From: an uncultured Desulfovibrionaceae bacterium
GTDB lineage: Bacteria > Desulfobacterota > Desulfovibrionia > Desulfovibrionales > Desulfovibrionaceae
DNA: 64,000 bases
Direction: 5' to 3'
Assembly: GCA_964371225.1 (NCBI GenBank)
Contig: CAYJNA010000001.1
Span: forward strand, 1,582-65,581
Positions within the stretch are counted from its first letter, which is position 1; each line of letters begins with the position of its first letter. Both the position numbers and the translations under genes were made by a program. The notes under the pieces were generated by a model. That model searched no databases and was not told the origin of the DNA. It was given only the letters and a program-made list of their open reading frames with translations. This document shows positions 27,394 to 48,965 of the stretch, piece by piece.

Positions 27394-29811
27394 CTATTCA
27401 ACCTTTCTCATGGCATCTTGCAATTCTTGTGCTTGCTGTGCCAATTCACGTATGGCTTCAGCAGATTGTAAAATGGCGTCTGCATTTCTATTAACCACTT
27501 CATTAATATCACTCATGGATTGAGAAATTTCTTCTGAAACAGTGGTTTGTTCAGCGGCAGCCCCTGCAATGTGGTGAATCATATCTGTATTGAGTCCAGT
27601 TACTTTGGAAATTTCTTGTAAAGAATTTTCTGAAAGTTGTGCAAATTCAGCTGTTTTACTTATTTGCGCTACCACGCTTTTTACTTCTTCTTGGTTAGCG
27701 GCACTGGAGGCTTGAATGGAGCGTACACTTTCGCCCACTTCGCGTGTGGCATCCATGGTTTTTTCTGCCAGCTTTCTTACTTCATCAGCTACCACGGCAA
27801 AGCCTCTGCCAGCTTCACCGGCTCTGGCGGCTTCAATGGCAGCATTAAGCGCCAAGAGATTTGTTTGGTCTGCTATATCATTGATAACATTTATAATGCT
27901 GCCTATACCTTCAGATAAGCTGTCCAGCGTTGCCATATTGGTATTTAAATTCACAGCAGAATGACTTAACTTCGTCATGGCGGATGACATTTTTGTTATG
28001 TTATCAATACCATCTTTTGCTTTTTCTAATACAGTATTGCTTTGGTCTGCGGCACTTAAAGCGTTGGAGGCTACTTCTTGCACAGAAGCATTCATTTCTG
28101 TCATGGCGGCACTAGTGCTTTCAATTCGCTCTCGTTGGAAATTAGAGCCTTGTACAATGGAATCCGTTTGTGAAGAGAGCTCTTCAGTCGCAGATGCAAC
28201 ACGCACAGCCACCTCTGTTGCCTGTATAGACATTTGCTTTATGGCCTCGCCTTGCTCATGTACTTTTGTGATGTCAGCCAAAAATTCCACATAAGCTACA
28301 GCTTTGTTGTTTAAATCATACAAAGGCTGAGCTTGTACATCAAGAGTAAGCACTTCACCGCCAGGGAGACATGCTGCTAAAGCATTAATGCTCCCTTGGC
28401 TTTTAAAGGCATTTAAACCTAAACAATGCTCATTCCCACAAGCAGGAGATTTAAAGTGATGTCCGCAATTAGTCCCTTCTACCTTGTCACATTTAACCAT
28501 TTTTTTACCGGTAACATTCATATACATAACAGTATTATCGGGAGTTGCTGTAAAAATACCCGCTGGAATACCATCAAATAATTTCACATAAGTTTGCGAT
28601 AAAATATTTACATTATTAATGAGGCTACGGAAATCGCCTTCAAATTGTTGTGGATCAATTTTTGTGTCTAAATGCCCACTGGAGATTTGATTTGCCGTGC
28701 TATAGATTTGATCTTTTAAGTTTAAAAGAATTTCTGAAATACCTTTAATACCGTCCATAACAAGACCAATTTCACCTTTTTCATGAACTGTAATGGAGGC
28801 ATCCAAACGTCCTTTGGCAATATTTTGTGCATATGTTGCCATTTTAGTAAGTGTAGAAGAAAATGTTACTACAATGAAGGCTGTTATGAGTATACTCACA
28901 ATAATGGCTATGATGGACAAAAGAAGAATTTGATCTAATGAAGAATCCACTGAACTTGAAATGGCTTTTAATTCCGAACTGGCACCTTGAGCAGCTTCTT
29001 TACTTAAAGGAGCAATGATAGCAAGGATACTTTCTCGAATGTCGTTTAATTCAGCCACTTCATCGTCTAATTTTTTACTTTCAGTATCAATAAAATGAGC
29101 AATTTTTATAAATGCATCTGTTGCCAATTGAAGGGAAGTGAAGGGTGTAGTATCCGAAAAAAAGCCTGAATCTTTCAGAGCCATAATTTCATTTAAGTTT
29201 TTTATTACTATATTTTTTGATTCTACAGATTTTGTAAAGATTTTCTGCTCATGTGATAATAAAAATGACTCTAAATAACCTTGATAATTTACAATCTCTT
29301 TTTGTGATACAATAATTTTTTCAATGGCATCAAAATTATTTGCATTAATCATAGTTTGTAAAATACTAGAAAGAGCTACCATGAGCTCCTTTTCTGACTG
29401 CACCAATTCACCACTAATAGCTTTTTTTAAGGTAATAGCATGAGAAAAATATTGATTTGCTGATGTTAAAATTTCTTCTAAAGAAGATATGACATTTCTT
29501 ACACTTTGTTTATCATTATCTTGTACAAAATTTAAAAGTTTTTTATTATCTTCCAAAGCATTTTGGACAGATTTTCTTACACTTTCACTATCAGCAGTAT
29601 CGTGATGTAAATTAAATTGGTCAAGGTGATAGGCAATTTTGTATAAATCGATTTCTGTTCTGTATGTGATGGAGTCTACTTGGTCAAAGTTAATAAATTC
29701 ACTTACATCGGTACTGGTTCTGCTGGATGATGTATAGCTAATAAGCGCCAGCACAATAATAGTAAGAATTAAAAGAGAAAATCCTAAAATTATTCGTAAT
29801 TTACTTGTCAT
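27394..29811 (-). CDS. Methyl-accepting chemotaxis protein (helical periplasmic sensor, HAMP, Cys-rich cytoplasmic PAS, MA domain)
   Basis: 805 aa. Two TM segments (aa 7-26 and about 296-318). Signalling hairpin [34 protein letters not shown]. Confidence 0.9.
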
Positions 29812-30237
29812 AGACCCTCCAAGTCAAAAGCGCACGACACAAAAAAGAAGCGCACATATAACTTTATGTGTGTAATAGTACAAATAATATACGCTTTATA
29901 CGGTAATTGTCAAATATTCAGCGCATTTTAAGCCTTTTGTACAGCTCATTATACGTAATATTTTTGAAACAAATATTCGCAAGTATTATCCAAAAATGAA
30001 GAAATACAAAAAATATTCTTTTTTAACTACTTGATTTTTTTTAATCTTGAACTGTCTGTATTTTCTTGTGTAAGAAAAAGTACTGTGAGAAGATGAAGCT
30101 GAAAATTTTTTATGGAAGATTTTTAGCGAAAGGCAGTAACAAATGTCACTGCCTTTCTGATGAAATCTATAAAAAATAAACGAGTGTATATTTTTTTGTA
30201 TACTATATGACAAATACACACATGGTTACTAATAAAA

Positions 30238-31119
30238 TTACCATGAAGTGGCAGAAAGTTGCGCCAATCCTTTAATTAACACTTGCGTGCCATCCTTTCC
30301 ATGCCCATGTGCCTCCAAGAGACGATAGGCTTGTTCAGCCATGGTCAGACCAGGAAGGTTTAATCCCATGCGGCGGCATTCGTCTATGCACAGGCCAAGA
30401 TCTTTACGAAAATGTTCTACAAAAAAGCCAGGTGCAAAATCGTTATCTACAATACGCTTACCAAGCACATTCATGGCAGTGCTCCCAGCAGCGCCGGGAA
30501 CAACAGTTTCGCGCCATGTGGACACATCAAGACCGCATTTTTTAGCAAAAAGTAAGGATTCACATACAGAAAACATAACCCCTGCAATGGCAATTTGATT
30601 AGCTAATTTAGCCTTTTGCCCCATACCGGCGCCGCCGCAGTGTACAATGGTTTTCCCCATTTTTTCAAAGCAGGGGAGCAGAGCTTCATAGGCTTGCTGT
30701 GTGCCGCCCACAAAGATGGAAAGGGTGGCATTTTTCGCACCCACATCACCGCCGGTTACGGGTGCATCCACAGCTAGGCAATCTTTTTGTGCAGCAGCAG
30801 TGGCAATGCGTTCGGCAAGATTGGGGCAAGAGGTGGTCATATCACAAAGAATACCACCAGTCTTAAGACCAGCTAAAGCACCATTTTCACCCAACATAAC
30901 TTCTTCCACATCATGAGGAAAGCCCACAATGGAAAAGACAATGTCTGATTTTTCAGCCACTTCGCGAGGGCTTTGCGCCCAAGTGGCACCCATATCAAGA
31001 AGGGCAGAGGCTTTTTCTTTGGTGCGGCTATAAATAACAAGTTCGTAACCGGCTTTGCGTAAATTTGCGGCCATGGAAAGCCCCATGATACCAGTACCAA
31101 TCCATCCTACAGTTTTCAT
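30238..31119 (-). CDS. NAD(P)-dependent 3-hydroxyacid dehydrogenase (3-hydroxyisobutyrate / tartronate semialdehyde reductase family)
   Basis: 293 aa. GWIGTGIMGLSMAANL Rossmann motif and family-typical central and C-terminal regions. Own SD AAGGAG, 17 nt after the FGE-domain gene. Confidence 0.85.
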   Translation of the reverse strand: MKTVGWIGTGIMGLSMAANLRKAGYELVIYSRTKEKASALLDMGATWAQSPREVAEKSDIVFSIVGFPHDVEEVMLGENGALAGLKTGGILCDMTTSCPNLAERIATAAAQKDCLAVDAPVTGGDVGAKNATLSIFVGGTQQAYEALLPCFEKMGKTIVHCGGAGMGQKAKLANQIAIAGVMFSVCESLLFAKKCGLDVSTWRETVVPGAAGSTAMNVLGKRIVDNDFAPGFFVEHFRKDLGLCIDECRRMGLNLPGLTMAEQAYRLLEAHGHGKDGTQVLIKGLAQLSATSW

Positions 31120-31136
31120 AAAAAGCTCCTTCGCGC

Positions 31137-32816
31137 TTATTTTTTGAGAATATCTTTTTGTAATTGCTCCACTGTAACCGCTTTATAATTATTTTCTCGT
31201 GTGTATTGAAGATGTTTTTCGAATAATTGGATATTTTTTAATAGCTCTAAACTAAAAGTATCTCCAACAGAAGCTAAATCTTTTTTTACTTGTTGTAATG
31301 CTTCATTAATTAAGCTGCTATCATTGGCACGTAAGTCTTCAATTTTTGTTTTATAAAATTGCGTGGTTTGCCTAATGGCATTATGGAAATTTGTAATGCC
31401 GTTCTTTGCTTTTTGGATACTAGCATCAACTTTAGCAAGAACACTTTTATCGGTATTAGCTTTTTTCAAGCCTTCAAGATTAGTTATAGTACCTTGAATA
31501 ATGGCAATTCGAGAAGAAAAATTCTGTACTGATTCAATGAGATAGGCCATGTTACGAATTTCAGAAACAGCAGTGAGCATTTGCTGTCTTTCAAAAGCAA
31601 TATTATTTTCTTTTAAAATATTACGTAAATGCTGATAATTCTTTTTTTCTGCTTCGTCGGTGGTGCCAGCTATAAGACGATCAATTTCATCCAAAGGATT
31701 ATTTTTTGTATCTAATAAAAGACTTGGTTTTTCACCGGCTTGCGCCCATTCATTTTGCAAAACCTCTTGACGATTCCCCCCCGGAGTATTAATGCCGGAA
31801 AGGGCTAAACGAAAGCCCATATCACGTAGGTATACGGCTCCATCTACCTGAAAAAAAGCAACTTCTTCACGTCTACCGGGGTAAATTTCTTCTAAGCTTG
31901 AGAGAAAGCTTCCGCCTTTACGTATAAAGCCCCCAGCAGAACCATGTAAACGGCCGCCTAAAGAAAAGCGAAATACATCCATAACCATTTCAGCCACATT
32001 TCCTGCTGTATCATACAAGCCCAGCTTATTAGGCTTGCGTGAACCAATACGTAAGGGGCTTTCCTCGATTCGGGAGGCATTTTCGGGGCGATACACCGCA
32101 TATACGGTATGGTCTTCTCCATCACCCAAGGGGAAAAAATCTTCTTCTAAAAATTGTTGTGCCGTGGTGGTATGCCCCCCTCTGGCGGCATATTCCCATT
32201 CAATTTCTGTAGGAAGGCGTAAGTAGCCCACATTACGCGTGTCATCTTTAAAATGTGGTAAAGATTGCGGATGGTTTTGTAAAAGCCATTCTGTATATTT
32301 TTGTGTAAATTCCGTAGCTTCGTACCAAGAAATTTCTGTTTTTGGGCGTACATTTTCTGCTGAAGGAGCAGGGCATATGCCTTGCATAATAGCATCCCAT
32401 TGTAGGCCGGTTACTTCATATTTTCCTATGAGGTAGTAAAGAAAATCACCTGATGGAGTTTGCTTTTGCCAGGCCTTGGGTAAATCTCCTTTAGCAAAAG
32501 GTGCCGCAAGAGTGGCTGTATGGCGGCTATCATAATAAGCCCTATCTTCACTTTGTGCGTTGTCATAGCCAAAACGTGTGCTCATATCCCACAAAAAACC
32601 TTTGGCGGGTACGCCCACAATTTTAAAAATCATGGACATATCACAAGGCATGGGGAGAGAAATATCTCCTGAGCTGGGTACGGGGTTATATCCTTCTTCT
32701 AATTTTGCGCTTCCTTTTAGGGTCAACGCTGCATGTGCAGAGGAAGTAGCCCCCCCAAATCCTGCACAACCTAAACAAAAACATAAAGCCCAAGGAGCCA
32801 GCTTATTATATATCAC
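31137..32816 (-). CDS. Exported FGE-sulfatase (SUMF1/EgtB/PvdO) domain protein with a roughly 200-aa C-terminal coiled-coil region
   Basis: 559 aa. Signal or lipoprotein-like N-terminus (FCLGCAG). YLRLPTEIEWEYAARGG, LGLYDTAGNVAEMV and RKGGSF motifs of the FGE fold. The helical tail has heptad character. Confidence 0.8.
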   Translation of the reverse strand: MIYNKLAPWALCFCLGCAGFGGATSSAHAALTLKGSAKLEEGYNPVPSSGDISLPMPCDMSMIFKIVGVPAKGFLWDMSTRFGYDNAQSEDRAYYDSRHTATLAAPFAKGDLPKAWQKQTPSGDFLYYLIGKYEVTGLQWDAIMQGICPAPSAENVRPKTEISWYEATEFTQKYTEWLLQNHPQSLPHFKDDTRNVGYLRLPTEIEWEYAARGGHTTTAQQFLEEDFFPLGDGEDHTVYAVYRPENASRIEESPLRIGSRKPNKLGLYDTAGNVAEMVMDVFRFSLGGRLHGSAGGFIRKGGSFLSSLEEIYPGRREEVAFFQVDGAVYLRDMGFRLALSGINTPGGNRQEVLQNEWAQAGEKPSLLLDTKNNPLDEIDRLIAGTTDEAEKKNYQHLRNILKENNIAFERQQMLTAVSEIRNMAYLIESVQNFSSRIAIIQGTITNLEGLKKANTDKSVLAKVDASIQKAKNGITNFHNAIRQTTQFYKTKIEDLRANDSSLINEALQQVKKDLASVGDTFSLELLKNIQLFEKHLQYTRENNYKAVTVEQLQKDILKK

Positions 32817-34134
32817 GAATAACCTCCGAAGGTATAATTTTAGACGCTTTTATGGCTGGAATACACGTTGCGGCTAAAGATAAGAGAAGAACAATACCAA
32901 AGCCCAAAGCAAAATGTTCCGGCGGTAAGGAGCATATTTCTTCTGTGGCATCTTGTCTACTTTGTGCAAAAAGATATTCAATCAAATGTGCGGCAAGGCC
33001 ATAGAGCACAGCGGCAAGGGTGGAGCCCAAGGCAGCTGTTAAAAAACTTTGAAAAAGAGGGAAGACCATTATATCTGCCCCATTATAACCCACAAGGCGT
33101 AATATACCAAGATAGCGTTCTTTTCTGCGAACAGCAGCCAGGGCATGGCTGGCAGTGGATGCTAAAAAGCCCAAGGCAGCCGTGGTACCAATAAGCCCGA
33201 AAATTAAATTGAGCGAATCATTAAGCGCACGAACCGTGGCAATTTCTTCGGCCTTGGTGTACACATCAATGGATTTGGCGGCAAAAAGTTCACGTAAGGC
33301 CGTTACAGAGTCTAAGTCTTTGGCATACAAACGAAAAGCAGGGTACACACGAGCGCCTTCAGGGGCAATATCGCCTGTCCAGCCTTGCTCTTCGCTCAAA
33401 CGTACATCTTTTTGCGGTTGACGCCCATCACGAAAGTCTTCTGTGGCTTCCAAAAGCTGTAAAGGAACAAAGGCTACGTCTTTTTGTTGTACCGACAAGG
33501 GAAGAATGCTTTGCACCCATAATACCACTGTGGCGCGTTGTACCTTACCCTGATGTAAACGCTCCACTTGACCTTGTAAAAGGCTTTGTGTTGTGGCAGA
33601 AAGCTTACGTGCAGCTTCCGCAGAAAGGGTAATGGCAAAGGCATTGTCCGGTTTTTTTGCCGCATGTGTTACAGCCTGTGCGCTATCACCTTCTGGTGTT
33701 TTTGCTTCTTCCGATGATTTTTCCTTTTCTTCTGCATCTTGTTGCTGCATATAGGGCGCTAGTAGCGTATCTCCGGAGGCTGTGGGCTCAAGAGAAGCCG
33801 TAATGCGTTTTAGCATATTGGTTTCACCTAGTATGCGTATATCCATGGTAGAAGCGATAGAGCGTGTTTTTGGTAAAATAAAACCCACATGAGGATTTTT
33901 CGCCATTTCCTCAATCCATGCCTTGGTATAATGCCCACTAGATACAGGAATAATTTCTAAATTATGCGGATTATTTTGTAATCTATCTGTCATGGTGGTA
34001 ATAATGCCGTACTTTACCCCATACAAAACCAAAAGCGGCGTTAATACCGCTGCTAAAGAAAGAATAGCGCAAGCAGAAAGTAAAGTTTCATGGCAATAGT
34101 CTTTCATTGCCAATACGCATGATTTAGTTAACAT
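32806..34134 (-). CDS. ABC transporter permease, FtsX/MacB type
   Basis: 442 aa. TM1, a large (about 270 aa) extracytoplasmic domain with an acidic insert, then three C-terminal TM helices (FtsX domain). Overlaps both neighbours (7 and 11 nt). Confidence 0.75.
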   Translation of the reverse strand: MLTKSCVLAMKDYCHETLLSACAILSLAAVLTPLLVLYGVKYGIITTMTDRLQNNPHNLEIIPVSSGHYTKAWIEEMAKNPHVGFILPKTRSIASTMDIRILGETNMLKRITASLEPTASGDTLLAPYMQQQDAEEKEKSSEEAKTPEGDSAQAVTHAAKKPDNAFAITLSAEAARKLSATTQSLLQGQVERLHQGKVQRATVVLWVQSILPLSVQQKDVAFVPLQLLEATEDFRDGRQPQKDVRLSEEQGWTGDIAPEGARVYPAFRLYAKDLDSVTALRELFAAKSIDVYTKAEEIATVRALNDSLNLIFGLIGTTAALGFLASTASHALAAVRRKERYLGILRLVGYNGADIMVFPLFQSFLTAALGSTLAAVLYGLAAHLIEYLFAQSRQDATEEICSLPPEHFALGFGIVLLLSLAATCIPAIKASKIIPSEVIRDI

Positions 34135-34958
34135 GTGCCGCTCCCTATGCCTGCTGTTCCCACGGGTTTAACTTCGTATATATCTTGAGAGTTGGGGCTT
34201 TCTTCTTCCATATATTGGGGCTCCTGCCATGTGGTAGTGGCGCCCATATGCGCGTAAATTTGCCCTTCTTCGCGTGTAACTTCAGTGGTCACAAGCCGAA
34301 AACCAGCAGCTTTGGCGCTGTCTGGTGAATGGCTTACCATAACAACACTAATATGTTTTTCTTGTGCAATGGAAGTGAATAATTCCAAAACCAATTGCGC
34401 ATTGTAAGGATCTAACGATGCCACAGGTTCATCTGCTAAAATAAGCTTAGGCTCATGCACAAGAGCGCGCGCTATGGCAAAGCGTTGACGCTCCCCCACA
34501 GACATTTGCGCCGGTTTTTTTTGTAGTAAATGTGTAATATCTAAAATTTGTGCAAGGTTTACTATACCTTCTTTATGTTTTGCATCAACACAACATAAGG
34601 CAATATTTTCATACCCATTTAAAAAGGGAAGGAGCCCACCTGTTTGCAAGATATAGCCTATATACGTACGTCGCAAAGCTGCAAGAGAGCTTTGTTTGCC
34701 TTGACGCCAAAGTTGCAATATGTCCACAGGCATGTCTTGAGGGCAAAAGGAAAATACGCTGCCCTCCTGTATGCCAGGTTCTAAAGCTGTGGATAACATA
34801 TCCAAAGCTGTACTTTTGCCGCATCCGCTGGGGCCAACTAAGGCCACAAGCTCACCGCGCTGCACAGTAAAGCCTTCCATATGTAAGGAGAAGATTTCAC
34901 TAAGCCCATGCTGTTTATGCAAGTGGGCTATATTAATTATGGGTTGTGTTATATTCAT
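34128..34958 (-). CDS. ABC transporter ATP-binding protein
   Basis: 276 aa. Walker A GPSGCGKST, degenerate signature MSVGERQR, Walker B ILADEP and H-loop VSHS. About 50-aa C-terminal extension. Confidence 0.9.
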   Translation of the reverse strand: MNITQPIINIAHLHKQHGLSEIFSLHMEGFTVQRGELVALVGPSGCGKSTALDMLSTALEPGIQEGSVFSFCPQDMPVDILQLWRQGKQSSLAALRRTYIGYILQTGGLLPFLNGYENIALCCVDAKHKEGIVNLAQILDITHLLQKKPAQMSVGERQRFAIARALVHEPKLILADEPVASLDPYNAQLVLELFTSIAQEKHISVVMVSHSPDSAKAAGFRLVTTEVTREEGQIYAHMGATTTWQEPQYMEEESPNSQDIYEVKPVGTAGIGSGTC

Positions 34959-35115
34959 ATTTTCCGTGCTATGAGGTTATGTTGTGATAAAAAAACGGTT
35001 ATAATGGTGTAAAATATACTGTAAAAATAATATGATATAATATATTAAATGATTTTATTTTTATATAAAGTAGTTCAGATGATGATTAAAAATTTTGCTG
35101 TAATCAAAAATGTAA

Positions 35116-35152
35116 TTTGAGGGAAAACATACTGTAAAAGTTTTCCCTCAAA
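35116..35152 (-). terminator. Strong hairpin terminator ending the Srf-type operon
   Basis: Perfect 13-bp stem TTTGAGGGAAAAC / GTTTTCCCTCAAA with an 11-nt loop. It starts 22 nt after the vWA-gene stop and is followed on the minus strand by T-rich sequence. Confidence 0.65.
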
Positions 35153-35173
35153 CTACACGATAAAAATATACTA

Positions 35174-37117
35174 CTAAGGAAGCATGGTAAGCGGCACGCG
35201 ATACATCCAATCACCGGGATTAGTAGCGCCAAAACTTTCCCAATGACTGCGATCTTTGTCATATTCCTCATAACGAGCAAGACGAGATTTCAATCTATTG
35301 ATGAAAGTGGTTTGCTGACCAATGCTCATACGATACCAATCTTCTTCGCGCAGAAGCATAATGTCACTCTTATAGGGTAAGCCTTCTAAGAATTCACCCA
35401 AAACACCCAGCTGGGAAAGGTTTTGTCCTTGTGGCATGGGGCTATTGGGGTCACGCGCGGCGCGTGTGGATGCGGATAAGATACCTTGGAAAAAGTCTTT
35501 AGCATCGGTTTTTTTGGTACGCTCAGCATTATCAATAATAATGGAGAGTTGCTGACTAAGGTCATTAAGCTGATTCTTGGTTAAAAGTACAGCCACTTCT
35601 ACAGTGGAAACTTGCTCTCCGCGGGCAAGCTTTTGTAAATCCATATCGGCAATCCATGAATCAAGTACAGAAGGAGCCCGTACTTCATTGGCTTTACCAA
35701 AGTATTCTAATTGCATGGCATAGCCAAGGGCAGCCGCCATTTGCTTAGCTTCTTCTTCAGGATTAAGCTTTTTACCTGGTTCATTGGCAGGCTTTGTAAC
35801 AAGTTTTCCGTCCATGGTCATCTGTACCATGGAAACAATGCCGGAAGTTAAGGCTTTAGACGTGACGCCAAAGTTATTCACACCTTCTTGAATGGTGTTG
35901 GCATTGACAGAAAGATAATTGGAACGACTATCAGAAAGACGAGTTAACAAACGATATGCCTGTTCTGCTTCCGCATGATTTTTCTTCCCTTTAGGGGATT
36001 TTATGTGCAAAGCGGATAGGCGCACCCCTTTAGTGCGGGCATAGTCTGCCAATTCCGGCATATCCATTTTCACCGTTGCGTAAGGATCGCTGGGGGAAAG
36101 TGGCCCGGCATCAGTAATCACAATGAGCATTCTTGTGCTATAATCTGACCAGCTTAAAGAGTCCAAAGCCATTTTAATACCGGAAGGGGAGTTTTCCGTA
36201 AAAGTATGTGTGGACACGCTGGCTTCTTTTACTTTGGCCAGCTCCGTTTCTAACATTTTACGATCCTTGGCTGTCACAAGGTCACTGACAACACGACTTT
36301 CATACTCTGTACCGGGTTTTGCTTCTGGGCTGCTACGAAAAGCCACCACGCCAAAGGCCACATCATCTTCTAGATTAGCATTTTCCAACTGATCATACAC
36401 AGAGCGAATAACGTTAAGGCTCTGATCAATGTATGGCTTCATGGATATGGTGGTATCAATAACAAAAGCTATGGCTGTACGTGGTGTTGATTTAGACGCC
36501 TCTTCCTTACTTTGCCCAGGATCAATAGAGGCCACTTCTAAAAACTTTACGCCCTCAAAGGGGTCATTCATGGCCAAAATGGGCATAAGATAAAAACGTG
36601 AAGCATCTACAGCGCCTTCTTTTTCAGAAGGTTCTGTGGCAGCAACCTGAGCACCATCTAAGAGGTTTTGATTTTTATCAAGCACGGCTTTTTGAATATC
36701 AAAAAGTTTTTTCTCCATTTGTGTAGAAGTACAAATATCCATAAGTCCTTTTTCGTTTTTGAAAAAAACTAAAGGATTACGGGAGCTTCTTTCAGTAAAG
36801 AGAAGGGTGAGAGATTGATTCCATTCTGTTGACTTGGCTTGCTCAATCCAGCCTAAGGGTTGCGTTCCTGAAGGCCCCACCTGTAACCAACCATTTTGCT
36901 CTGCAAATACATAAAAAACTGTGAAGGGCTTTACATTTTCTTGCACTATGCCAGAAGAAGCACTGGGCCCTTGCATAATATCAGCGTCAGGATGCGTTAT
37001 AATTCGCTGATACAAAGTTTTTTTTCCCTCTTGTAATAGGGGAGTGGCTGCAAACACTTGACTATGCAAGGCGCTTAAAAAAGCCATGCACACAAGAAAA
37101 CATACAAGTTTACGCAT
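35174..37117 (-). CDS. Periplasmic von Willebrand factor A domain protein with an N-terminal SH3-like domain
   Basis: I trimmed the 687-aa track ORF to the internal ATG at 37117 (MRKLVCFLVCMAFLSALHS signal peptide, SD GGAG 8 nt upstream). This removes the overlap with the upstream gene. MIDAS-like AFVIDTTISM and GVVAFRS strands of a vWA fold, plus a roughly 250-aa uncharacterised C-terminal domain. Confidence 0.7.
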   Translation of the reverse strand: MRKLVCFLVCMAFLSALHSQVFAATPLLQEGKKTLYQRIITHPDADIMQGPSASSGIVQENVKPFTVFYVFAEQNGWLQVGPSGTQPLGWIEQAKSTEWNQSLTLLFTERSSRNPLVFFKNEKGLMDICTSTQMEKKLFDIQKAVLDKNQNLLDGAQVAATEPSEKEGAVDASRFYLMPILAMNDPFEGVKFLEVASIDPGQSKEEASKSTPRTAIAFVIDTTISMKPYIDQSLNVIRSVYDQLENANLEDDVAFGVVAFRSSPEAKPGTEYESRVVSDLVTAKDRKMLETELAKVKEASVSTHTFTENSPSGIKMALDSLSWSDYSTRMLIVITDAGPLSPSDPYATVKMDMPELADYARTKGVRLSALHIKSPKGKKNHAEAEQAYRLLTRLSDSRSNYLSVNANTIQEGVNNFGVTSKALTSGIVSMVQMTMDGKLVTKPANEPGKKLNPEEEAKQMAAALGYAMQLEYFGKANEVRAPSVLDSWIADMDLQKLARGEQVSTVEVAVLLTKNQLNDLSQQLSIIIDNAERTKKTDAKDFFQGILSASTRAARDPNSPMPQGQNLSQLGVLGEFLEGLPYKSDIMLLREEDWYRMSIGQQTTFINRLKSRLARYEEYDKDRSHWESFGATNPGDWMYRVPLTMLP

Positions 37118-37151
37118 GATACTGCTCCAATTAATGTTTTTATCGAATCTC

Positions 37152-37982
37152 TTAAAGTGTTTCTTTACTGTTGGTGTCAGATTTGTTTTGTGTATTTTCA
37201 AACCATTCCTCATATAAAGCAGTAAGAAGCCCTTCATCTTTTAAGTGTTTAATTTTTAGGCTCACTTCATCACGAAATTTTTTTTGTTTTTTAGAAAAAA
37301 GATAGCCGTAGTATTGTTCTTTTAAGCTGGGCTCTAAAATATGAGTGCCGCTTACATTTTGTATAATTTTTTGCAAGAAAACTTTGTCACCCAATAAAGC
37401 TTCTACTTCACCATTTTCCAACAAGTCTATAAGACTATCTTCATGCCTCAAAGCATAAATGATACCATTTTTTAAAGAATCAAAAGCGTATTTTTCTGCA
37501 GGGCTTCCTTTAAGAACACCTACAATGCTTGAAATAAGATCTTCATTACTGTCAAGGGGACTTTGCTCCAGCACTAAGGCGTGCAAATTAGATTGCAAAT
37601 GCGATTCAGAAAAAAGAAAACGATCTTGCAATCTTTGTGTAATCATGCGGCTAGAAAGAAGCATATGGCAGCTTCCATTATCCAACATGGCTAAACCTGT
37701 AGCAAAGTCTGTAGTAATAAATTCAATAGAATATGGTAATTCCATAGCTTGAAGTACCGCAATGTCAAAACCGCGCCGTACACCGTCTTCATCGTGAAAA
37801 ATGTACGGCGGGTTATCTACTGGTAAACAAATGGGAATCATTTGCTGTGCGTAACTAGGCGAAACACAAAGTGAAAAAATGCATATTGAAAAAAGAAACA
37901 TTCTTTTTTTATAGTGCTCAAAAGTTGCTCTACTTCTTGGAAATAGGCCATTTACGGTTTTTGCTTTTTCACTTCTTATCAT
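37152..37982 (-). CDS. Periplasmic solute-binding-protein family 3 (PBPb)-like protein
   Basis: 276 aa. Signal peptide (FSLCVSPSYAQ). PPYIFHDEDGVRRGFDIAVLQAM and ..GEVEALLGDK.. pattern of amino-acid-type SBPs. No cognate permease or ATPase of that class is adjacent. Confidence 0.65.
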   Translation of the reverse strand: MIRSEKAKTVNGLFPRSRATFEHYKKRMFLFSICIFSLCVSPSYAQQMIPICLPVDNPPYIFHDEDGVRRGFDIAVLQAMELPYSIEFITTDFATGLAMLDNGSCHMLLSSRMITQRLQDRFLFSESHLQSNLHALVLEQSPLDSNEDLISSIVGVLKGSPAEKYAFDSLKNGIIYALRHEDSLIDLLENGEVEALLGDKVFLQKIIQNVSGTHILEPSLKEQYYGYLFSKKQKKFRDEVSLKIKHLKDEGLLTALYEEWFENTQNKSDTNSKETL

Positions 37983-47801: not shown

Positions 47802-48602
47802 TTAACCTTCCAATGCGGCTTGTAAAATAGCGTCATTGGTGGCAATTTGTTTTTCCACATCAACGCGCGTAGTTTCAAGTTCTGTACGAGAAGCTTTCCA
47901 AGAATTGGTGCTTTGTGCCACCTTACGTACTTCAGGATTTTTAATTTTTGCAGGATTTTGCTGCGCTATCATAAGATTTTGTGTACCGCCCACTTCTTGC
48001 GTCATGACCTTTTGATATTCAAGATCTTTTTCTGCAGAATTTGTATAGGTGGTTTGTAAAATACGTGCTGTTTCTTCAAGGCCGGCACGAATTTCTGTGT
48101 AACGTGCGCTGAGTTGTTGCTTGGTAATGGTACCAGCTTTGGCTTGGCTAATGGCTGCAGTAAATTCTCTTTCATAGCATTGAGATGCAATTTTAGCCGC
48201 TGCAGTGGCACGATTCATGGAGGCTGTTTCTGAGTTTAACTGACTGGCATATTTAGCATAGAATTGAGCATCACGTTTTGCTTGTTGATTCTTTCCATAA
48301 ATATTTCCACCTACAGCACCAGCAGCACCACCAGCAGCAGCACCCACTAAAGCGCCACTAGCCTTACCTGTGAGCAAGCCGCCCAAAATAGCACCTACAA
48401 TGGCACCACCCACTGCGCCTGTAGCTGTGGCATTACCTGTGAGATTTTCGTCATTGCGTAATTCTGCCACAGGTTGATAACAAGCAGGGTAGTGCTTCAC
48501 TTGTGTGGTTTGTGTGCCATACTTACTTGCACAACCTGTCATTATAAAGGTACCTAAAACAAGCACTCCAATAACAGGATTCATCTTTCCAAAGCAAAAC
48601 AT
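47802..48602 (-). CDS. Glycine-zipper lipoprotein with a helical C-terminal domain
   Basis: Track ORF trimmed to ATG 48602 (SD GGAGG 5 nt upstream). MFCFGKMNPVIGVLVLGTFIMTGCAS lipobox. GAVGGAIVGAILGGLLTGKASGALVGAAAGGAAGAVGG glycine zipper (17-kDa antigen/SlyB-like), then a roughly 170-aa helical region. Confidence 0.65.
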   Translation of the reverse strand: MFCFGKMNPVIGVLVLGTFIMTGCASKYGTQTTQVKHYPACYQPVAELRNDENLTGNATATGAVGGAIVGAILGGLLTGKASGALVGAAAGGAAGAVGGNIYGKNQQAKRDAQFYAKYASQLNSETASMNRATAAAKIASQCYEREFTAAISQAKAGTITKQQLSARYTEIRAGLEETARILQTTYTNSAEKDLEYQKVMTQEVGGTQNLMIAQQNPAKIKNPEVRKVAQSTNSWKASRTELETTRVDVEKQIATNDAILQAALEG

Positions 48603-48965
48603 ATTAACCTCCATGAATAGTTTCTTTTTCATACAATAAACATCCTTTAGTATGAAAAAATAAATTCCCATGTGAAACTTTATGTTATTAGCAAAAATTG
48701 AAAAGTTCCACGCCTCATAATATCGCAAGTAATATAGCTTATTTTTCCATAATGGGCAAGTAAGTCATGCTTTATCCCTTCTGCATTTGCTAAGTAAATA
48801 CCATGGCATATGCCTAAGAAAAAAAGTGTCTTTTTTCTTGCGGGCTGAAGGTTTGTGCGTTAATATCTATAAGTGTTTTTTTGCGTCATTATTTTATGTA
48901 CTGCGTAAAACTGCGGTTTTAGTGGTGCCATTTTTCTTGTATCACAGAAAATTTGGAGGATTTTT

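Follow-up and report, generated by a model that had tools for sequence, protein, structure and literature searches.

A trio of overlapping genes in an uncultured Desulfovibrionaceae bacterium encodes an ABC ATPase, an FtsX-type permease and a secreted protein with an FGE (formylglycine-generating enzyme) domain which, judged by sequence, are gene-for-gene homologues of TagT, TagS and TagR from the threonine-phosphorylation sensor of the Pseudomonas H1 type VI secretion system (H1-T6SS). The trio lies within a stretch of 64,000 nucleotides (contig CAYJNA010000001.1 of GenBank assembly GCA_964371225.1, positions 1,582 to 65,581), hereafter the window, where srfB and srfC adjoin vWA, ABC, FtsX and FGE genes on one strand. 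The vWA gene encodes a secreted relative of the periplasmic region of the kinase PpkA, and with a TagQ-like lipoprotein it completes, by homology, a TagQRST/PpkA-ectodomain set at this locus. We consider it likely, at a probability of roughly 0.7, that this is a kinase-less sensor set coupled to SrfABC and not to a T6SS. A first-pass annotation of the trio had been partly right: its functional island, its non-catalytic FGE domain and its ABC class are supported, but it missed the Tag/PpkA-ectodomain identity, through which the system and its published biology are identified.

The features to which the text refers are as follows:

47802-48728, minus strand: TagQ-like glycine-zipper lipoprotein, gene 1 of the srf operon (Pfam Gly-zipper_Omp and Rick_17kDa_Anti)
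41933-45124, minus strand: SrfB (Pfam SrfB, 7e-260)
39243-41897, minus strand: SrfC (Pfam Virul_Fac, 1e-261)
35174-37117, minus strand: secreted vWA protein, homologous to the PpkA periplasmic region
35110-35158, minus strand: hairpin with a 19-bp stem, immediately 3' of the vWA stop codon, inside a 215-bp spacer
34128-34958, minus strand: TagT-like ABC ATPase, 276 amino acids (aa; Pfam ABC_tran, 1e-25)
32806-34134, minus strand: TagS-like FtsX/Lol-type permease, 442 aa (Pfam FtsX, 9e-10, residues 317-433)
31137-32816, minus strand: TagR-like secreted FGE-domain protein, 559 aa, GTG start (Pfam FGE-sulfatase, 3e-23, residues 129-338)
30238-31119, minus strand: dehydrogenase, 293 aa (NAD_binding_2/11; 3-hydroxyisobutyrate / tartronate-semialdehyde reductase family by Pfam and NCBIfam)

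On re-checking, the open reading frame (ORF) positions, overlaps, gaps and motifs previously given for the trio all proved correct. The genes of the trio overlap by 7 nt and 11 nt, 17 nt separate the FGE gene from the dehydrogenase gene, and the motifs MSVGERQR (ATPase), LPTEIEWEYAARGG and RKGGSF (both FGE protein) are present. Pfam likewise places SrfB, SrfC and the vWA protein upstream of the trio.

Identification of a TagQRST/PpkA-ectodomain set

With the FGE protein as query, two kinds of loci were found in Pseudomonas genomes, one Srf-linked and the other T6SS-linked. The latter kind, represented by L096 and five others with gene identities assigned by Pfam, runs TssM/IcmF, TagF, PP2C phosphatase (PppA), PpkA, TagT, TagS, TagR and TagQ (a glycine-zipper lipoprotein), with a PpkA of 985 aa whose Pkinase domain occupies residues 8-249 (Pfam). 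As this order equals the published tagQRST-ppkA-pppA-tagF-icmF arrangement, we took it as the T6SS-linked Tag reference. Against this reference the proteins of the window compare as follows:

ATPase and TagT: 42% identity, E 4e-46
Permease and TagS: 36% identity, E 5e-69
FGE protein (residues 23-549) and TagR: 30% identity, E 3e-62
vWA protein (residues 66-687) and PpkA (residues 373-985): 36% identity, E 1e-119
Lipoprotein (47802-48728) and TagQ: 31% identity, E 2e-16

The Tag homology of the trio was seen again in seven further loci, and the TagQ-like lipoprotein shows 30-37% identity (E 1e-15 to 1e-25) to TagQ genes across T6SS loci. Gene order agrees as well, the vWA-ABC-FtsX-FGE arrangement of the window being T-S-R directly beside the gene for the PpkA periplasmic region. 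The vWA protein likely starts at M41 of its 687-aa ORF and opens with a Sec signal peptide, MRKLVCFLVCMAFLSALHSQVFA|AT; this plain signal peptide replaces the kinase, linker and transmembrane (TM) segment of PpkA, after which the two proteins are collinear to a common C-terminus, YRVPL..LP. The vWA protein is thus a homologue of the PpkA ectodomain that has neither kinase nor membrane anchor and is predicted to be free in the periplasm. Since the modelled partner of TagR in Pseudomonas is the PpkA ectodomain (PMC13713981), to which the vWA protein corresponds here, the latter is probably the binding partner of the TagR-like protein.

The remainder of the Pseudomonas pathway is missing. The genome from which the window derives (2.63 Mb, 97.7% complete) gave zero matches to TssC, Hcp and TssM, and equally none to the Pkinase family of Hanks kinases, so that both the kinase PpkA and the T6SS output of the threonine phosphorylation pathway are lacking. 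In those Desulfovibrionaceae relatives that do possess TssC, it lies on contigs other than that of the cassette.

The TagR-like protein

From N- to C-terminus the TagR-like protein consists of a signal peptide ending AHA|A, a conserved NPxPxxxDxxLPMPC motif, an FGE fold at residues 129-338 and a helical tail at residues 374-557, and so has the architecture expected of a TagR: a Sec signal, an FGE-like domain without catalytic Cys, and a helical C-terminal part. An AlphaFold2 (AF2) model renders the tail as long helices with a predicted local distance difference test score (pLDDT) of ~90. The earlier description of an FGE fold joined to a coiled-coil tail names both parts correctly, but the combination is no local fusion: a large family is regularly built in this way (435 clusters at 50% identity with E<=1e-30), and the tail aligns in relatives down to 25% identity. 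The AF2 model was built from a 19-sequence input and has a mean pLDDT of 62; a Foldseek search of it against the PDB gave zero matches at E<=0.001, only generic helical bundles, and was not used for conclusions.

In true FGEs the two catalytic cysteines come soon after the GGS motif. In the TagR-like protein the segment RKGGSFLSSLEEIYPGRREEVAFF... that follows this motif (residues 301-303) has no Cys, and there is zero conserved Cys past the motif in 28 relatives, down to 25% identity. In line with this, alignments of the family profile with true FGEs end at about position 307-310, just beyond the GGS motif. Profile matches of the family in the PDB begin with TvpA (5e-26) and PorK/GldK (6e-18), followed by true FGEs (5e-14 to 1e-10), with PvdO (2e-5) the second-weakest among 21. 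The suggestion that the FGE domain is non-catalytic is thereby upheld, as the last Cys is C148 and the closest solved relatives are scaffold proteins.

Three other roles for such a protein were considered and ruled out: that of a catalytic FGE (SUMF1), as the catalytic Cys pair is missing in the protein and the 28 relatives; that of EgtB, at 15.8 bits versus a cut-off of 360 and with Pfam showing the FGE domain only and no DinB-like domain; and that of PvdO, at 22.2 bits versus a cut-off of 500. The genome contains just one FGE-domain gene (31137-32816), and its two Sulfatase-family (PF00884) genes are both on other contigs. We also observed that the DNA coding for the tail (31137-31700) has a GC content of 0.32-0.36, compared with 0.42-0.47 in the remainder of the gene, and that Lys, Asn and Ile abound in the tail.

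Linkage with Srf genes across genomes

In a sample of 151 Desulfovibrionaceae genomes, with orthologues counted when full-length, the TagR-like gene was found in 28, SrfB in 27 and both in 24. Two of the three genomes with SrfB only are assembly artefacts, in that the G067 contig stops just past the permease gene and the G021 contig starts inside the vWA gene, and three of the four with TagR only are just 58-76% complete. By comparison TssC occurs in 39 of the 151 genomes, and in only 11 of the 28 that have the TagR-like gene. Where the TagR-like gene and SrfB share a contig they are ~10 kb apart on the same strand, in the order protease-SrfA-SrfB-SrfC-Sel1-(SBP)-vWA-ABC-FtsX-FGE, in which SBP denotes a solute-binding protein. 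In two genomes (G054 and G146) the vWA gene closes the srf operon and the trio is elsewhere, and in a third (G020) the vWA gene has relocated together with the trio, away from srf. The trio can thus be separated from srf, yet genomes with Srf genes retain it, in agreement with the hairpin and spacer in the window.

The order SrfB-SrfC-(Sel1)-vWA-ABC-FtsX-FGE recurs in Pseudomonas guariconensis, on a Pantoea plasmid and in Castellaniella hirudinis, and the same srf-Tag gene order in six further Pseudomonadota genomes; with the Desulfovibrionaceae loci included, at least 13 loci from two phyla have it. With the order kept across two phyla and co-occurrence persisting when the genes are unlinked, the proposal of a single functional island made up of the trio and the Srf-type operon is supported. 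In a Pseudomonas sample, also of 151 genomes, every SrfB genome (13/13) has a TagR-like gene on the same strand, no further than ~11 kb away. SrfB is absent from the 53 remaining genomes with a TagR-like gene, and the six of these that were inspected are T6SS-linked. The two versions of the cassette may be mutually exclusive in Pseudomonas, although related genomes are not independent. A sample of 401 Pseudomonadota genomes gave a match in 12, of which five are Srf-linked and two are confirmed as T6SS-linked. A search for related loci by one short pattern, RLPTExEWE, returned at least 80 loci; ~70 of those listed were generic FGE-domain proteins, and L016-L023 were informative. Wide occurrence of the trio away from Srf, which had been named beforehand as evidence against the link, holds only in that sister cassettes serve other partners; the version found in the window is tied to Srf. 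As a separate observation, none of the 66 TagR-bearing Pseudomonas genomes has two TagR-like matches, and none has both cassette versions.

Other contexts of the cassette and their phylogeny

A second and more distantly related Desulfovibrionaceae arrangement (L010-L015, e.g. L014:4425-13736) is a self-contained seven-gene cassette comprising a kinase-less vWA gene, TagT, a long TagS of 620-676 aa, TagR, a TagQ-like gene, a 166-aa protein and an S41/PDZ protease. These S41-type loci have no Srf genes in the locus, TssC is unmatched in most of the genomes concerned, and the cassette is present in a Srf-less genome (G047) of the same genus as the window. In Tabrizicola sp. M-4 (L022:6618-15213) one protein with both a trypsin-like peptidase domain and an FHA domain is encoded directly ahead of TagT-TagS-TagR, with the vWA gene ~2 kb downstream; Srf genes were not found in this 21-kb locus, and the genome has no TssC match.

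We built a tree from concatenated TagT, TagS and TagR (35 rows, 1166 columns), rooted on the S41 type, a root that is assumed. The T6SS-linked clade (support 100/100) is sister (94/87) to the Desulfovibrionaceae Srf-associated clade, and both fall inside a group that also holds the Srf-linked Pseudomonadota. A single Srf-associated side is rejected by the approximately unbiased (AU) test (p = 0.0008), with the caveats that the group was named after the tree had been seen and that a single genus-level group supplied the T6SS rows. The kinase-bearing PpkA occurs only in the T6SS-linked clade. Since this clade is nested in Srf lineages, the kinase is found only there, and other branches are associated with an S41/PDZ protease or a trypsin-FHA protein, it is tempting to propose that the TagQ/R/S/T and PpkA-ectodomain cassette is a portable sensor of envelope damage, with SrfABC, and not the T6SS, as its original and most widespread partner. 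We offer this as a tentative idea, and one that we would sooner doubt than accept. Were it true, the Pseudomonas tit-for-tat sensor would have arisen from a captured Srf-type cassette by kinase fusion, and SrfABC would serve as the output side of a response to envelope damage and not as a toxin.

The ABC pair

The assignment of the ABC pair to the MacB/Lol/FtsEX class (type VII ABC) is supported by an FtsX-type permease, a large periplasmic domain and intact ATPase motifs. By motif alignment the ATPase has intact Walker A, Q-loop, Walker B with its catalytic Glu, and H-loop, and its nearest NCBIfam models are DevA, LolD and FtsE. Its ABC signature had been called degenerate, a description that does not survive comparison, as LS[VI]G[EQ]RQR is common to all 35 of 35 family members examined, T6SS-linked TagT included. 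In the permease the large periplasmic domain lies between TM1 and TM2, and the family profile matches LolE (2e-13), LolC (1.5e-10) and LolF (5e-9) in the PDB, then FtsX and MacB. The LolCDE equivalog cut-offs are not reached, however, with 19.5 bits versus 362 for lolCE and 117.7 bits versus 307.8 for LolD. A search with PADLOC gave generic ATPase matches only and none for the permease or FGE protein, so the trio is no catalogued defence system.

What the pair does is less readily stated. The FGE protein had been proposed to be driven by the ABC system, a claim that is not supported in this form: in the Pseudomonas homologue, the only one studied, no stable contact of TagST with TagR or TagQ was found (PMC13713981). 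The ATPase activity of TagST is nonetheless present and required for the sensor (Kolesnikov 2026, PMC13713981).

Two further features of the pair were noted. Residues ~128-165 of the permease (33640-33750) form an acidic low-complexity insert, QQQDAEEKEKSSEEAKTPEGDSAQAVTHAAKKPD, in the periplasmic domain; the insert is absent from the same-genus orthologue (416 aa versus 442 aa). The ATPase bears a C-terminal extension of ~45 aa (residues ~227-276; 34128-34280) that is acidic and Gly/Thr-rich and whose end overlaps the permease start. It is unaligned in relatives, most of which are ~232-272 aa long, and tblastn matches end at residues 211-260.

The spacer and transcription of the trio

The spacer between the vWA gene and the trio (34959-35173) is 215 bp long with a GC content of ~0.34. 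The hairpin and AT-rich spacer reported upstream of the trio are real, the 19-bp stem having a folding energy of -27.2 kcal/mol (z = -6.2 versus shuffles). The hairpin is not conserved, given that L002 has a different 9-bp GC hairpin and L007 and L008 are without any. A promoter-like site within the spacer (35138-35109) scores 9/12, which is at chance level, and consensus scans for promoters and terminators over 29700-35400 gave a site count not above that of shuffled sequence. The AT-rich spacer probably holds the trio's own promoter. Given the hairpin and AT-rich spacer ahead of it, the trio probably forms a transcription unit of its own in part, semi-independent of the Srf genes yet functionally still tied to them.

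Proposed mechanism and alternative readings

By analogy with Pseudomonas, perturbation of the outer membrane would cause the TagQ-like lipoprotein and the TagR-like protein to form a complex, whose TagR FGE-fold domain would then bind the vWA/PpkA-like protein. The TagT/TagS pair would perform some ATP-dependent work needed by the sensor. Because there is no kinase, output would pass instead via the bitopic proteins of the srf operon (the SrfA-position protein, the tethered protease and the Sel1 protein) to the cytoplasmic SrfB/SrfC NTPases. We infer this coupling of sensor to SrfABC by the same analogy. SrfA has been modelled as a membrane platform with a kinase-like N-domain that binds SrfB and SrfC (bioRxiv 10.64898/2026.09.18.752743); although speculative, this would make SrfA a plausible stand-in for the missing cytoplasmic half of PpkA.

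Several points weigh against a sensor set coupled to SrfABC. With neither kinase nor anchor, the vWA protein leaves no evident path from the periplasm to SrfB and SrfC. The AF2 model of the FGE domain is poor, with pLDDT <50 over residues 208-333. The hairpin and spacer, as well as the loci in which the trio is unlinked from srf, permit separate regulation. In Pseudomonas itself no stable contact of TagST with TagQ, TagR or PpkA was found (PMC13713981), which leaves two of the three genes without an explained role even where the sensor has been studied. Finally, Salmonella has srfABC without this cassette (bioRxiv 10.64898/2026.09.18.752743), meaning that Srf can work without it.

A different reading, that of a recent preprint (bioRxiv 10.64898/2026.09.18.752743), would make the cassette a Lol-like export and maturation module, in which the ABC pair is a specialised LolF-type exporter of lipoproteins or toxins, with the periplasmic domain of SrfA as the target that the SUMF1-family protein modifies. 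Such a role would suit a permease whose profile is nearest LolE, LolC and LolF, an ATPase nearest the LolD, DevA and FtsE models, an island that itself encodes a TagQ-like lipoprotein, and the preprint's own finding of this cassette next to srfABC in Haemophilus and Xenorhabdus. We nevertheless think it unlikely, given that all four proteins match the TagT/S/R/PpkA-ectodomain set full-length, that the cassette also stands in T6SS and S41-protease loci with no Srf proteins to export, and that the FGE catalytic Cys pair is missing here and family-wide; the missing pair and the Tag homology together argue against an enzyme plus exporter. Maturation is further disfavoured in that FGE chemistry requires O2, whereas the host belongs to the mostly anaerobic Desulfovibrionaceae. 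In Pseudomonas, moreover, TagQ and TagR localise without TagST (PMC13713981).

Two other readings are less credible still. Type VII ABC systems frequently act in peptide resistance, and the trio might be an efflux or antimicrobial-peptide resistance system of the MacB/BceAB kind, independent of the srf operon and only adjoining it. A terminator-like hairpin and 215-bp spacer after the vWA gene set the trio off from that operon, and in the genomes of some relatives it lies elsewhere. This we regard as improbable in view of the co-occurrence with SrfB (24/28 in Desulfovibrionaceae and 13/13 in Pseudomonas, even when unlinked), the dedicated FGE-fold partner present in every locus, and the absence of a membrane-fusion protein, TolC-like gene or two-component system beside the trio. 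That the genes constitute a canonical TagQRST regulator of a T6SS encoded elsewhere in the genome would account for their clear homology to T6SS-linked genes and for the 11 of 28 family genomes that have both cassette and TssC, yet it can hardly be credited when TssC, Hcp, TssM and a Hanks kinase are all unmatched in a 97.7%-complete genome, the PpkA homologue has neither kinase nor TM segment, and the TssC of relatives lies on other contigs.

Neighbouring genes

Membership of the dehydrogenase in the module is not supported: it follows the cassette only in some Desulfovibrionaceae, of three genera (L002, L007 and L008), and is not 3' of it in L003-L006, L009, the loci with an unlinked trio or the Pseudomonadota loci, and its identity among relatives (64-73%) is above that of the Tag-like genes. 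We read it as a chromosomal neighbour outside the module. In the Srf-less same-genus genome G047 (L116:10829-12801), a 39%-identical homologue of the operon's SBP_bac_3 protein lies directly upstream of the dehydrogenase, unlike in the window (30238-37982), where the vWA gene and trio lie between the dehydrogenase and the SBP gene; apart from this pair, no flank of the window is conserved in G047.

Further downstream on the same strand, beyond a 426-bp AT-rich gap, is an 805-aa chemoreceptor (HAMP, PAS_4 and MCPsignal domains; 27394-29811), with a promoter-like site 5' of its gene (29913-29884) that scores 11/12. In two Srf loci of Pseudomonas (L099 and L100), homologues of such methyl-accepting chemotaxis proteins (MCPs) are likewise found no more than 5 kb from the cassette.

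Comparison with known systems

The srf-Tag neighbourhood is already in print, and the present locus is a further instance of it. Campbell et al. 2013 (PMC3608642) described a ten-gene srfABC neighbourhood of host-associated Deltaproteobacteria in which tagR, tagS and tagT were named and the vWA gene was called 'ppkA' and suggested to trigger SrfC export. The window has the same gene set and order, in a genome without any kinase. It likewise shares gene set and order with the 'Lol-like ABC + vWA + SUMF1' cassette that flanks srfABC in Haemophilus and Xenorhabdus (bioRxiv 10.64898/2026.09.18.752743). Both published readings are affected by our results, in that the 'ppkA' of srf neighbourhoods would not be a kinase and the SUMF1-family protein would not be a formylglycine-making enzyme. 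The locus also joins two puzzles, the function of SrfABC (open since 2000) and the role of TagS/TagT, in a minimal form that has no kinase and no secretion machine. Loci of this type would therefore be a simpler setting in which to study the role of TagST, and SrfABC as an envelope-damage response.

The closest known system is the TagQRST and PpkA sensor of the P. aeruginosa H1-T6SS (Hsu 2009; Casabona 2013; Kolesnikov 2026), TagQRST having been studied only in Pseudomonas according to a 2026 review. There TagR is a 62-kDa periplasmic protein whose dimers are symmetric and which assembles with TagQ into a 2:2 complex (PMC13713981); the complex is induced by membrane damage, and a loop of the FGE domain is modelled onto the PpkA ectodomain (Kolesnikov 2026, PMC13713981). 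Homologues of all five proteins are found here, sharing 30-42% identity across their full or nearly full length, with the same T-S-R order beside the gene for the PpkA ectodomain, the same LSVG[EQ]RQR ATPase signature and the same TagR architecture, the FGE-like domain being published as ~127-359 versus 129-338 here and followed by a helical C-terminal part. In contrast to P. aeruginosa, the locus is without a kinase domain, TM segment, PppA, Fha or T6SS, and its PpkA homologue would be free in the periplasm. Its TagQ-like gene is ~13 kb off at the head of the srf operon, whereas Pseudomonas tagQ adjoins tagR, and its partners are SrfA/B/C, a tethered trypsin-like protease, a Sel1 protein and an SBP-like protein.

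With LolCDE/LolDF, MacB and FtsEX the trio shares a four-TM FtsX-type permease, a large periplasmic domain and a LolD-like ATPase, but unlike these it is always paired with an FGE-fold protein, and there is no sign of a lipoprotein-release role. Treponema denticola TvpA (2Y3C), the type IX secretion system (T9SS) ring lipoprotein PorK/GldK, and PvdO likewise use the FGE fold as a binding or scaffold module without catalytic Cys. To this fold the TagR-type proteins add an N-terminal LPMPC motif and a helical tail of ~190 aa, and, in contrast to TvpA, PorK/GldK and PvdO, none of which works with an ABC pair, they are accompanied by one.

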